Virus genome (UHGV): UHGV-0041832
Source: a virus
DNA: 52,506 nucleotides
Strand: one strand, 5' to 3'
Shown: piece by piece, positions 46,378 to 51,348 of the stretch
How positions within the stretch are numbered: the stretch's first letter is position 1
Layout: each line of letters opens with the position of its first letter
Program-made: the position numbers and the translations under genes
The notes under the pieces: model-generated
What the model was told of the DNA's origin: nothing
Database searches by the model: none
Seen by the model: the letters and a program-made list of their open reading frames with translations, nothing else

Positions 46378-49300
46378 ATGAGTAGCGGCGGCGGCAAAGC
46401 CAAAACACCAACATTATTGAACGATAACCTGTATCACAAACAGTTTTATCGTGTTTTAGATATTCTCAGCGAAGGGCCGATATACGGTCCGGTAAACCAG
46501 AAAGCGCCATTGAATGACGTGATGCTTAATGACACTCCTGTTACTGACGCAAACGGGAATACATCAATTCCGGGGATTAGTATAGCCTGGCGCAACGGCA
46601 CGGCTGACCAATCGCCGATTAATGGTTTTAACGCCATTGAGTCAACCGTTATTGTCAACGCAAAGGTAACTCACGACACACCAATAATCAGGACTGTTTC
46701 AGATCCAAACGTTACCCGCGTCAGGTTGAATCTTGGTGTTGATGCTCTCGTTCAGTCAGATGAAAAGGGCAATCAATATAATACATCCGTCATGTTGATG
46801 GTTGATGTTAAACCGTCATCATCTTCTACGTGGTCGCTGATTAAAGACATACACATTGGCCCTGGTAAACAAAGCGGTGAATACCTGGAAGCTCACATCA
46901 TTAAAGCGCCGGATGAAAAACCGTTTGATATTCGCGTTCGTCGCATAACACCAGACAGCAACGGCGATCTATTGCGGAATGATACGCGGTGGAGTAGTTA
47001 CAGCGAAATAATAGATGATAATCTGTCTTATCCTCATACCGCTGTAGCTGGCGCCGTAATTGACCATGATCAGTATACTGATACGCCTACCCGCACCTAT
47101 CACCTTCGCGGCCTGATTGTTGATGTGCCTGACAACTACAACCCTGAAACGCGCACATATTCAGGTTTATGGCTTGGTGGATTTAAAAAGGCGTATACCA
47201 ATAACCCTGCATGGCTTTTCCGGTATCTGGTTAAAAACGAGCGCTTTGGACTTGCTCGACATGCTGGTTACATTGATGTTGATGATGGCGCTTTGTACGT
47301 GCTTTCTCAATACTGCGATCAGTTGGTTGATGATGGCTATGGTGGCCTTGAACCTCGCATGACGCTTAACGCTTACATTACGGAGCAAATGAGCGCCCGC
47401 GACCTACTGGATAACATCGCAGGTATGTTCCGTGGTATCGCGTTATGGGACGGACAACGTCTTACCGTGATGATTGATGCGCCACAAGATCCAATCGCCA
47501 CCATCACAAATGCAAACGTCGTTGATGGCGCGTTTACTCGCTCAAGTATCGCACGCGCAGAATGCTACAACGCCGTGATCGTATCCTGGACTGACCCTGA
47601 AAACGGCTGGGAGCAATCAAAAGAATATGTCGCAGATGATAAACTAATCGCCCGTGATGGTTATAACGAAACCACGTTGGAGGCGTTCGGTTGCACTTCA
47701 CGCGGGCAAGCGCACCGCGCTGGTAAATGGCTGATCGAAACAGCGAAACGCGAGCCGTCAAAATTCACATTTAAAATGGCCCGTGACGCCATTCACTTTA
47801 CGCCGGGGGATATAATCGAGATCCTCGATAATAATCGCGCAGGCGCTCGTTTAGGCGGTCGCATCGTGGCGAACAATGGCAGAGCGATCACGGTCGACAA
47901 GGTTGATTCTGAATATATCGCGGCTGGCGACACCATCAGCTTACTTGATAGCGATGGTAAATTTAAAAAACACCAGATCATCGGAGTTAACGGGAACATT
48001 ATCACCCTTGCAGCCGCCCCGGCGTGGATTCGTAACGGCACTGTTTTTGCTGTATCAACCAACGCAGCAAAACCCGTTTTATGTCGAATCACCAGTGTAG
48101 CAGAAACAGAAAATAACAGCGTATACACCATCGAGGCCGCACAGCATGATCCACATAAGCAGGCCGTAGTCGATAATGGCGCAATCTTCGAGATCAATAA
48201 CGACACGCTTAATCACTTCCGCGTGCCGAACATTGAAAATCTGAAGGTGTTAAACGTTGGATCTGAAACGGTTCAATGTCGCGCAACATGGGAAACACAG
48301 ACGACAACGCGTCGCCTGACCTTTGAGATTCGCGTGTATAACGCCGAAGGCGCTGTAGTTAAAAGCTACGAAACCACGAATTACAGTTATGATTTTTATG
48401 GCATTGATGCTGGCAACTACTCATTAGGCATTCGCGGCAGAAATGACACGGGCATGAAGGGTGCGGAAAGCATTGTCGATCTGGTTATTGGCGCACCAGC
48501 GGCCCCAGTTGGCGTTAATTGGGTTCCCGGTGTATTCCAGGCTACAGTTTACCCGATCAGCAGAACAACGCTCACCACTGATACCAGTTACGAGTTTTAT
48601 TACTCAGGTGAAACGCAGATCACTGATCCGGCATCAATAACCACTAAAGCACAATATACCGGGCGTGGTCATCAGTGGACGTTTGGCGGCATGAATACAG
48701 GTCACACATATTACGTTTATGTGCGCGCGCGTAACGCTTTTGGTGTGTCTGACTTTGTGGAAGCGTCAGGTAAGCCAACAGAAAACTTTGATGAAATTAC
48801 CGATTACGTCACCAAAGACGTAATGAATTCCAAACAATTTAAAGAAATGGTTGGTGACATTAAAGATCTAGGCGACCGCACTGATCTTATCGAAAGCGCT
48901 ACGAATGACCTTAAAACTGCTACTGACAACCTCAAAACTGCAACTGATAATCTGACCAACATAACTGACGATTTAAGGACTGAAACTGACAACCTAACCA
49001 TAGAAACAGGATCAATAAAAGCTGATACTGATACGCTCAAAAAAGAAACGGAAGATCTTTATAAAAAAGTTAAGGAAAACGCCGATGATATTGGACAGCA
49101 TGAGTCGAGAATCGACTCGCTGGAGGTGTCTAGCGAAAAAGTTGGCAGCGAACTGGCGCAAGCAAAAGCAAGTCTGCAAAACGCCTCACTTGCTCTTATT
49201 AATAACTCGCTTGCACAGACTAACACTCGCGTAACTCTTACCGCTCAGTACAAGAAAGGCAGGACAGAGACGAAAGCGGAAATTGACCGCATTGACAACG

Positions 49301-51348: not shown

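Follow-up and report, generated by a model that had tools for sequence, protein, structure and literature searches.

Architecture and recombination of the J gene of a probable mEp021-like temperate siphophage of Escherichia coli

Background

The question raised by this locus is what fills the extra length of its J gene, the central tail fibre (tip attachment) gene, and how the repeats and the distal end of that gene vary among related phages. The gene (46378..51348, plus strand) lies in virus genome UHGV-0041832, of which the whole stretch of 52,506 nucleotides was analysed (hereafter, the window). In a preliminary description made from the letters of the DNA, the gene product was presented as a lambda-like J protein enlarged by a repeat-rich coiled-coil insertion and ending in a compositionally distinct domain. 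In 2025, J proteins of mEpimmI-group phages were reported to differ in size, to carry repeats (positions 950-1475), and to combine a conserved stretch with a terminus of lower conservation (PMC11893012). Size-variable repeats and a variable J terminus have therefore already been reported, and the J protein considered here is ordinary phage biology that is largely described; current understanding is not overturned by our findings. Here, the architecture, unit structure, copy-number variants, mosaicism, and composition of the gene are described as they were observed, and the explanations proposed for them are weighed.

Gene identity and genomic context

The 1656-aa open reading frame with an ATG start was real, and its coordinates had been given exactly in the preliminary description. 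It was matched by phrog_31 ('central tail fiber J'; E=0) and contained five Pfam J domains. The gene was 100% identical over 4971 nt to a prophage gene of E. coli MS 21-1, the product of which, WP_000094326.1 ('phage tail tip fiber protein'), was 100% identical to J; in addition, four more complete-genome records (three more strains; two of the four records have equal length and coordinates) contained it as a single piece at >=99.9% identity. Upstream of J are three ORFs (44453-45157, 45160-45891, and 45834-46364), the MS 21-1 equivalents of which are annotated as minor tail protein L, a C40 peptidase, and a tail assembly protein, and J is located downstream of the tail assembly genes L, K, and I. 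The mEpimmI relatives showed 80-93% DNA identity to J nt 1-2555/3858, and the KASLQNAS block headers and 36-aa AIADExxAR units (see below) were present in all 18 alleles examined. Near-identical prophages adjoin abgT (GN04592 and GN05505) or ydaN/zntB (MS 21-1 and FAH), that is, they occupy the E. coli prophage site at the ydaM/abgT/mppA region; the insertion sites of mEpimmI phages were described in PMC11893012. With NCBIfam NF049904 (lambda_TipJ), J scored 724.7 bits against a cut-off of 1950 bits; as judged by its sequence, it is a member of the J family and not an equivalog of lambda J. Taken together, the ORF very probably encodes the J protein of an mEpimmI (mEp021-like) temperate E. coli siphophage, with the architecture and the recombination account presented in the following sections.

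Domain organization and collinearity with lambda J

The N-terminal part (aa 1-810; 46378..48807; this and the following segments are on the plus strand) consists of a lambda-like hub with FNIII/Ig domains, in which Pfam assigned FNIII-A_GpJ (46639-47019), Phage-tail_3 (47380-47853), Ig_J (48202-48498), and Ig_J_second (48502-48810); PF24801, PF13550, PF24421, and PF24489 were all above their cut-offs. In the phmmer comparison, J aa 1-851 aligned with residues 1-858 of lambda gpJ (8iyk_J; E=8e-187), which bears out the collinearity with lambda J previously asserted for this part. Since J aa 1355-1528 also aligned with lambda gpJ 837-1000, a short segment of lambda is replaced in J by about 500 aa. 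The terms 'enlarged' and 'insertion' are appropriate relative to lambda only; a stalk of this kind is usual among these phages, and the present allele is mid-range (7 units; range, 1-14).

The segment between the two lambda-aligned parts is an alpha-helical stalk (aa 811-1362; 48808..50463). It occupies the position of the lambda alpha-helical shaft (about 50 aa in lambda; shaft, beta-prism, and the other gpJ domains are named according to PMC11101478), and it is an expansion, roughly ten-fold, of lambda's own shaft. The stalk is followed, as in a lambda-type J, by the beta-prism of the central straight fibre (PF09327 Phage_Tail_Tip; aa 1363-1500; 50464..50877), which was assigned with Pfam (E=2.9e-40), the alignment with lambda gpJ 837-1000, and AF2; the AF2 model of the C-terminal part of J matched lambda gpJ713 (8xcj) with E=2.6e-17. 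The alignments of relatives then delimited a linker (aa 1501-1528; 50878..50961) that carries a short ATSGKFxG duplication and ends in the conserved junction SFVGDVANM. The remainder (aa 1529-1656; 50962..51345) is a distal beta-sandwich domain of low GC3, the presumed receptor-binding domain (RBD). In the layout that we propose, the lambda-type hub and FNIII/Ig domains (aa 1-810) would close the tail tip; the proline-free stalk (aa 811-1362), built of eight heptads and two header-plus-array blocks, is followed by the lambda-type beta-prism (aa 1363-1500) and the short linker (aa 1501-1528); and the beta-sandwich tip (aa 1529-1656) is at the position of the lambda RBD.

Repeat units of the stalk

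No proline was found in the 552 aa of the stalk, its hydrophobic periodicity was 3.58-3.60 (z=6.6-6.9), and it was cross-matched, weakly, by SMC coiled-coil models; amphipathic helical periodicity together with the absence of helix breakers is as expected of a coiled-coil stalk. Internal-repeat self-BLASTP of J gave nothing usable, and the repeats were defined by register listing, a unit profile, and pairwise block alignment. Serial units of about 31 aa had been described for 48.8-50.5 kb. The repeats themselves stand; their period is 108 nt (36 aa), with two arrays (4+3) that together comprise seven strictly in-register units, and 48.8-49.4 kb, which is also helical, contains instead of these units eight tandem ATDNLKT-like heptads (aa 841-896; 48898..49065; TRF period of 21 nt and heptad listing) and a block header. 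Block A (49156..49833) consists of a header (aa 927-1008) and four 36-aa units (49402-49833), as found by the register listing, the unit profile, and the block alignment; block B (49834..50295), assigned by the block alignment and the unit profile, is its duplicate, with a header (aa 1153-1198) and three 36-aa units (49972-50295). The segmental duplication that had been claimed was confirmed by the comparison of block A (aa 927-1152) with block B (aa 1153-1342), which were 58% identical across 179 aligned aa (z=41 relative to shuffles), and by the two DNA copies of the header (at 49159 and 49837, 678 nt apart), which are 83% identical. The seven units scored 52-68 bits each against the unit profile, and these scores are circular because the profile was built from the same seven units; the profile independently found 1-14 in-register units in other alleles.

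A hydrophobic core recurs in 6-7 of the seven units at positions 4, 15, 18, 22, 25, 33, and 36 of the unit, and each unit has ten hydrophobic core positions, corresponding to two heptads plus two hendecads, or 3.6 residues per core position. From this pattern, we infer that the stalk is a nearly straight helical bundle. It is probably a trimeric coiled coil, as lambda gpJ is trimeric (PMC11101478), and its length would be roughly 80 nm. A 234-aa antisense ORF (49836-50540) was taken as a by-product of the repeat composition.

Variation in unit number

The 18 alleles ranged from 1358 to 1914 aa and from 1 to 14 units, J being mid-sized with 7 units, and length followed unit number (r=0.93). In comparison with J, the allele of GN04592 has 108 additional nt (one unit) and 4 SNPs, and that of LP-26-E1-261 has 216 additional nt (two units) and 3 SNPs (both variants were taken from assemblies of other laboratories). 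The repeat-mediated length variation that had been thought plausible is directly visible: between alleles separated by 3-4 SNPs, the length difference is exactly one or two units of 108 nt. The additional units match the adjacent unit (aa 1199-1234) at 98% identity and one another at 100%, and they map to 49977..50019, a stretch with an exact in-register 43-nt match with 50085-50127 in the next unit, which is a likely substrate of unequal crossing-over. Exact identity between adjacent units extends to as much as 43 nt, and unequal homologous recombination therefore probably adds or removes whole units while the frame and the helical register are preserved. These near-isogenic prophage alleles provide a worked example of a tail-tip protein that changes in whole 36-residue steps.

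With regard to the consequence of this variation, we give close to an even chance to the explanation that recombination-prone repeats generate the variation in stalk length as a side effect that is neutral to selection, the tip (or a separate receptor-binding protein, RBP) alone setting the host range. mEp013 (3 units), mEp010 (9 units), and mEp044 and mEp554 (12 units; unit counts from our profile) all plate on K-12 and all need LamB (PMC11893012), and every tip type was found on very different stalk lengths, the tip type of J on stalks of 3, 7, 8, and 9 units and the other tip types on 1-14 units. Stalk length and tip type assort independently; the use of LamB at 3, 9, and 12 units and the spread of tip types across lengths suggest that length is loosely constrained, and the published data argue against stalk length deciding receptor choice. 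However, K-12 is rough and non-capsulated, so that any influence of fibre reach on hosts that are smooth or capsulated would have gone unseen, and the gain and loss only of complete 36-aa units, which preserve the helical register, show that the function of the stalk is under selection, but not that a particular length is. That the stalk is an evolvable molecular ruler, the 36-aa units of which tune the reach of the tip through O-antigen or capsule, appears doubtful to us. If true, each unit would add about 5 nm when helical and would provide a host-range determinant independent of receptor specificity; moreover, for the tail to open, the binding signal would need to pass through about 35-120 nm of helical bundle, and the flipping of the short shaft of lambda could not carry the signal in the same way.

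The tip domain and its low-GC surroundings

In the alignments of relatives, the sequence past the SFVGDVANM junction is marked by an 11-aa indel and a sharp drop in identity; the tip domain is about 25% identical to the tips of group relatives, its best phage matches reach 36-44% identity, and mEpimmI relatives showed no DNA match to J beyond nt ~4584. Word-indexed protein searches with the tip alone or the stalk alone returned few matches, mostly partial, and a profile query was needed. The tip gave no match among PDB sequences even at E<=10; its AF2 model (pLDDT, 87.9) has eight strands, and the top Foldseek matches of this model were the RBDs of lambda and A8 gpJ.

Beyond the one conserved junction, at least five types of tip occur. 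GN05505 is identical to J only 3' of aa ~854 and FAH only 3' of aa ~1337, and these mosaic breakpoints fall at domain boundaries; the suggested exchange of distal modules is directly visible in these cases. Recombination at the FNIII/stalk, stalk/prism, and SFVGDVA junctions probably swaps stalk and tip modules between phages, and the same three junctions are natural splice points for host-range engineering.

The AT-richness noted earlier for the C-terminal domain is real but modest within the gene: GC is 0.389 and GC3 0.278 in the distal 128 aa, against GC3 of 0.44-0.49 in the other J segments. The deep trough lies after the gene, at 51.35-51.5 kb, and was rejected as a biological feature, being an assembly gap (T28, 48 N, and A28) that splits the terminator hairpin of a bidirectional terminator region (51349..51500; MS 21-1 alignment, and listing of N-runs and homopolymers); MS 21-1 has a plain 28-nt hairpin at this position. 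Beyond it, on the minus strand, lies the gene of an 81-aa secreted protein (51510..51755; GC 0.35), which travels with the tip type of J and the product of which is identical in the phage of J, LP-26, and FAH. The tip and this gene together have a GC of 0.373, within the lowest 0.46% of equal-length windows, and they probably travel as one low-GC cassette. The alternative, that the low distal GC reflects rapid divergence in place or amino-acid composition and no foreign cassette, is improbable in our estimation; 4.8% of equal-sized windows are as GC-poor as the distal domain alone, and the tips of relatives are also somewhat under the gene average (0.41-0.45), but the shift is strongest at synonymous positions, the low GC continues into the neighbour gene on the opposite strand, the pair falling within the lowest 0.46% noted above, and an identical module is found on otherwise diverged J backbones such as that of FAH.

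The 81-aa protein shares its position with exclusion lipoproteins that were tested (PMC11893012), and it is by position a candidate cognate exclusion protein. It had no Pfam or NCBIfam match, only a weak phrog_2243 match, and no similarity to Lpp types A and C (Lpp010 and Lpp021-type). An 'IVAC' motif is located only 7 residues from the start, and MKKLIVACILSALSFGAFA of this protein looks like an ordinary signal peptide. A lipoprotein identity was unsupported, with no convincing lipobox and no homology to the tested exclusion lipoproteins; the proposal that the protein may be the cognate exclusion factor of the tip is consequently a positional analogy. Tip type and 81-aa protein are a candidate for an additional receptor/exclusion pair; the phage group to which they belong is common in the human gut.

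The tip probably binds an outer-membrane receptor. Assignment of a receptor from the HK97/BASEL homologues was rejected because 33-44% identity does not suffice for it, a search of the literature with the names of the homologue phages found no paper, and PMC8594841 gives no transferable receptor assignment. We consider it quite improbable that the distal 128-aa domain is instead a docking platform for a separate RBP, or an intramolecular chaperone, and no receptor binder. In T5 and T1-like phages, the J-like protein is believed to be the attachment point of a separate RBP, and separate RBPs were proposed for small siphoviruses from genome comparison (PMC8594841); in the group members mEp021, mEp515, and WCHEC025970, moreover, the distal domain is missing and a gene of a DUF6453 virion protein is found downstream instead, and UMNK88, also without the domain, has two small genes and cor downstream. 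In the present genome, however, J is followed only by the gene of the 81-aa secreted protein and then by the side tail fibre gene, with no candidate RBP gene; the domain is at the exact position of the lambda RBD, after a homologous beta-prism; it is the most variable part of J, as expected of a receptor binder; and a homologous tip, 36% identical, is present on the J protein of HK97.

Integrity of the repeats and programmed variation

It is very unlikely that misassembly, by collapse or expansion, produced the repeats or their number. The source is a gapped assembly with three N-runs, and most database homologues are partial and cut at contig ends, which indicates that drafts do break in the repeat region; as draft assemblies routinely break in the repeats of J, J lengths obtained from short reads are untrustworthy. 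Against an artefact, the units of this allele are only 54-67% identical in DNA, so that a collapse is not to be expected, the frame is uninterrupted, and the same 4971-nt gene is found in one piece, identical or >=99.9% identical, in the complete genomes of four other strains. That a diversity-generating retroelement or an invertible segment programmes the tip variability is hardly conceivable and was rejected: the metagenomic protein P0005 joins J at ...STDNAL to an opposite-strand translation near 52009-52029, but the fusion point of this chimeric protein has just 8 nt of microhomology, and the window contains neither a template repeat nor a segment bounded by inverted repeats, nor a further copy of the distal region.

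Comparison with known systems

The closest known systems are the J proteins found in mEpimmI phages (mEp010, mEp013, mEp021, mEp044, mEp515, mEp554, and MagusPhagus), which share the gene order (L, K, I, J, a small reverse-strand gene, and the side fibre), the stalk units, and 80-93% DNA identity over the hub; they differ in their tips (about 25% identical), in the downstream small gene, and in the number of units (3-12, against 7 in J). Their receptors are LamB or OmpA, and genes of exclusion lipoproteins are in the structural-gene cluster (PMC11893012); in the mEpimmI loci that we retrieved, these genes are located just downstream of J. The same paper describes tails of about 130 nm, with no mention of any long fibre at the centre.

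Lambda gpJ (8iyk, 8xck, and 8xcj) has the same order of hub, FNIII domains, helical shaft, beta-prism, and C-terminal head. Its shaft is about 50 aa long, whereas that of J is about 550 aa, its RBD has no detectable sequence similarity to the tip of J, and its trigger involves the flipping of the short shaft, whereas the stalk of J is long. The closest phage homologues of the tip are the C-terminal ~150 aa of the J or J-like proteins of HK97, Seuratvirus/Nonagvirus phages (CAjan, 9g, and BASEL isolates), vB_EcoM_PD328, and Enterobacter phage BHUENT2 (33-44% identity over 96% of the tip), which belong to other lineages and carry the tip on stalks other than that of J. Finally, in the loci of T1-like phages, T5-like phages, and small siphoviruses (Cor and Llp; PMC8594841), to the Cor type of which, as to the Lpp types, the 81-aa protein is unrelated, a receptor module and an adjacent gene of a small secreted protein or lipoprotein are exchanged horizontally as a pair, as here; in those phages the receptor module is a separate protein, whereas here it is fused to J.

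Architecture of J and its relation to lambda gpJ

The J gene is a + strand ORF at 46378..51348 with an ATG start and a product of 1656 aa, exactly as the preliminary description had placed it. It carries the PHROGs label central tail fibre J, and five J-protein domains were assigned with Pfam: FNIII-A_GpJ (aa 88-214), Phage-tail_3 (aa 335-492), Ig_J (aa 609-707), Ig_J_second (aa 709-811), and Phage_Tail_Tip (PF09327; aa 1363-1500). In a search of solved structures, aa 1-851 aligned with lambda gpJ 1-858 (E=8e-187), which bears out the N-terminal collinearity claimed earlier, and aa 1355-1528 aligned with lambda gpJ 837-1000. 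The window J therefore has ~500 residues where lambda gpJ has only a few tens. Since lambda gpJ has its shaft at the exact site of the stalk (aa 811-1362), expansion of an existing element describes the difference better than the insertion proposed before. Enlargement holds against lambda only: among 18 alleles (8 phages or window, 10 prophages), in which J is 1358-1914 aa long and has 1-14 repeat units (r=0.93), the window J with seven units is mid-range.

In the window, J comes directly after gene I (45834-46364); in mEp515 (locus L002, 1942-2508) and mEp021 (locus L007, 1942-2508), I and J are separated by an additional gene, which is annotated as a putative HNH endonuclease in mEp021 and as hypothetical in mEp515.

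Repeat units of the stalk

Serial repeats are present in J, as had been described, with a unit of 36 aa rather than ~31 aa: direct-repeat families in the stalk DNA are spaced by 108 nt, and the register is obvious when the protein is laid out in lines of 36 residues. Seven units were matched by a unit profile, four at aa 1009-1152 and three at aa 1199-1306; because the profile was built from these same seven units, their scores of 52-68 bits each are circular. With this profile, the units of the other alleles (1-14) are spaced exactly 36 aa apart inside every array. Ahead of each of the two arrays in the window J is a header starting DQAKASLQNASLALINNS. One header with its array is a duplicate of the other pair (58% identity across 179 aligned residues; z=41 relative to shuffles), the header DNA copies being 678 nt apart, and the segmental duplication noted previously is confirmed. 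Upstream of the blocks, aa 841-896 form eight heptads in tandem with the pattern ATDNLKT.

The region of aa 811-1362 contains zero proline and almost no aromatic residues, and its hydrophobicity has a period of 3.58-3.60 residues (z about 6.6-6.9), a signal absent from the hub (the N-terminal J domains) and the C-terminal part of J. Unit positions 4, 15, 18, 22, 25, 33, and 36 hold large hydrophobic residues in 6-7 of the seven units, with Ala or Arg at positions 8 and 11/12; the ten core positions per 36 residues correspond to two heptads plus two hendecads. NCBIfam gave weak SMC coiled-coil cross-hits in the stalk region. From these sequence features, we infer that the stalk would form a nearly untwisted helical bundle, probably trimeric, with a predicted span of ~80 nm (552 residues at about 0.15 nm per residue). 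A 234-aa antisense ORF (49836-50540, - strand) within the repeat region most likely just reflects the codon composition of the repeats, with no evidence for a gene.

Length variation and soundness of the assembly

Repeat-mediated length variation, suggested before as a possibility, is directly visible in near-identical alleles: J of E. coli GN04592 differs from the window J by 4 substitutions and one additional 108-nt unit, and that of LP-26-E1-261 (LP-26) by 3 substitutions and two additional units. The additional units match each other fully (100%) and their neighbour at aa 1199-1234 at 98% identity. An exact 43-nt stretch recurs in register from one unit to the next (49977-50019 and 50085-50127) and would be a plausible substrate for unequal crossing-over.

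That the repeats of the window are collapsed or expanded by assembly is ruled out by one-piece genes elsewhere: in E. coli MS 21-1, a prophage gene matches J at every one of its 4971 nt (100% identity), the 11 kb surrounding J is 99.9% identical to that strain, and J is single-piece and >=99.9% identical in four further complete-genome records (CB7286 twice, under different accessions with identical length and coordinates, 2017C-4173W12, and M1/5). The units of the window allele have a mutual DNA identity of only 54-67%. Of the database proteins with homology to the J C-terminus, most are marked 'partial' and stop at the edge of a contig; breaks inside the J repeats are common in draft assemblies.

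Exchange of modules

In E. coli GN05505, J has the window length, with the first ~2 kb 15-20% diverged and the sequence identical from J nt 2561 (aa ~854) on. In FAH, it is diverged to nt ~4010 (aa ~1337) and thereafter identical save for two isolated substitutions. These breakpoints match the FNIII/stalk boundary and the boundary between the stalk and the PF09327 prism. The conserved motif SFVGDVANM (aa 1520-1528) marks a third junction: as far as this motif, relatives are 75-90% identical to the window J, with only ~25% identity over the last 128 aa (the tip, aa 1529-1656); no DNA-level match to the window past J nt ~4584 was found among the relatives compared. Behind this junction, database homologues have at least five unrelated-looking tip types, most of which finish with a common [ST]RG[ST]GS[FW] strand, and J of mEp021 and mEp515 lacks the tip entirely. 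The postulated distal-domain exchange is thus visible, both in these tips and in FAH, which is identical to the window only 3' of aa ~1337. A DGR or invertible segment, as programmed diversification, was examined and rejected.

Stalk length and tip type assort independently: the window's tip occurs on stalks of 3, 7, 8, and 9 units, the mEp010-type tip on 3, 9, 12, and 14, and the ...WDKWEESHD tip on 1, 3, and 11. LamB is required by mEp010, mEp013, mEp044, and mEp554, and OmpA by mEp021 and mEp515, and further J clusters may have other receptors (PMC11893012). LamB-dependent phages infecting K-12 carry 3, 9, or 12 units (receptors from PMC11893012; K-12 only); therefore, receptor choice is not set by stalk length.

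A metagenomic protein (P0005; JGI metagenome contig, 2817 nt) matches the window J as far as ...STDNAL and then carries on as the start of the side-fibre region translated from the opposite strand. As its joint (window 51028-51045 and 52009-52029) has only 8-nt microhomology, GATAATGC, it is probably a chimeric contig.

The tip and its downstream genes

The best phage homologues of the tip include the J C-termini of vB_EcoM_PD328 (44% identity), Enterobacter phage BHUENT2 (40%), HK97 (36%), and 9g and the Seuratvirus group (33-36%); no relative was found in the PDB by sequence. Modelled with AF2, aa 1330-1656 (pLDDT 78) aligned at 323 of the 327 residues with the LamB-bound lambda gpJ713 (E=2.6e-17). 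Modelled alone, the tip is an eight-stranded beta-sandwich (pLDDT 87.9, pTM 0.82) with the lambda and A8 gpJ RBDs as top Foldseek matches (E about 1e-5, TM 0.43-0.50). The modelled fold agrees with a lambda-type head, yet is not specific to such heads; the presumed RBD role rests on position, variability, and analogy.

The C-terminal domain had been described as AT-rich, and the distal 128 codons do have a GC of 0.389 and a GC3 of 0.278 (remaining J segments, 0.46-0.48 and 0.44-0.49), but by overall GC alone the rarity is modest, 4.8% of windows being as low. Combined with the reverse-strand gene at 51510-51755, the tip ranks among the lowest 0.46% of windows of equal length, which supports a foreign low-GC cassette. 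A much deeper GC trough at 51.35-51.5 kb was rejected as biology: the window has T28, 48 N, and A28 in place of the plain 28-nt terminator hairpin of MS 21-1. All three N-runs (10546-10651, 36639-36726, and 51398-51445, the third bordered by the T28 and A28 homopolymers) lie inside intrinsic-terminator hairpins; the assembly of the window thus has gaps, and composition profiles nearby are unreliable.

The product of the gene at 51510-51755 (- strand; GC 0.35) is an 81-aa protein whose signal peptide, MKKLIVACILSALSFGAFA, is of the ordinary kind; the protein is identical in all examined prophages carrying the window's tip (window, LP-26, and FAH). It had no match in Pfam or NCBIfam, a weak match to phrog_2243, and no similarity to Lpp type C (Lpp010) or type A of the group. 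In relatives, a lipoprotein gene at the same position blocks superinfecting phages with the same receptor (PMC11893012); by analogy of position, the 81-aa protein is a candidate for a cognate exclusion factor. The gene for the side tail fibre starts at 51953 (51953-52506, + strand) and runs off the window end; its 5' part is found at 80-90% identity in several hundred E. coli genomes, and its MS 21-1 counterpart is annotated as a 598-aa 'phage head spike fiber domain-containing protein'.

Comparison with known phages

The closest phages to the window are the Mexican mEp013, mEp515, mEp021, mEp010, mEp044, and mEp554, together with MagusPhagus (J of 1393-1828 aa). A DUF6453 gene follows the tip-less J in mEp021 (L007, 7725-8660, -), mEp515 (L002, 6723-7658, -), and WCHEC025970 (L013, 6559-7494, -); its product, a 'virion structural protein' in the mEp021 record, is a candidate separate receptor-binding protein in the OmpA-dependent phages. 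The E. coli UMNK88 prophage (L014, 6595-7774) likewise has a tip-less J; behind it come two small genes on the forward strand and a gene for a cor exclusion lipoprotein, a layout resembling that of FhuA-type RBP loci in T1-like phages.

The mEpimmI group was defined in a 2025 paper, in which J sizes vary and the N-terminal region is conserved and lambda-like (PMC11893012). The window J is an ordinary, well-resolved member of this described group, with a tip type uncharacterised before. To this, we add the 36-aa unit with its 3.6-residue periodicity, near-isogenic alleles exactly one or two units apart, breakpoints at domain boundaries, stalk lengths that assort independently of tip type, and the tip plus secreted-protein gene as a low-GC cassette.
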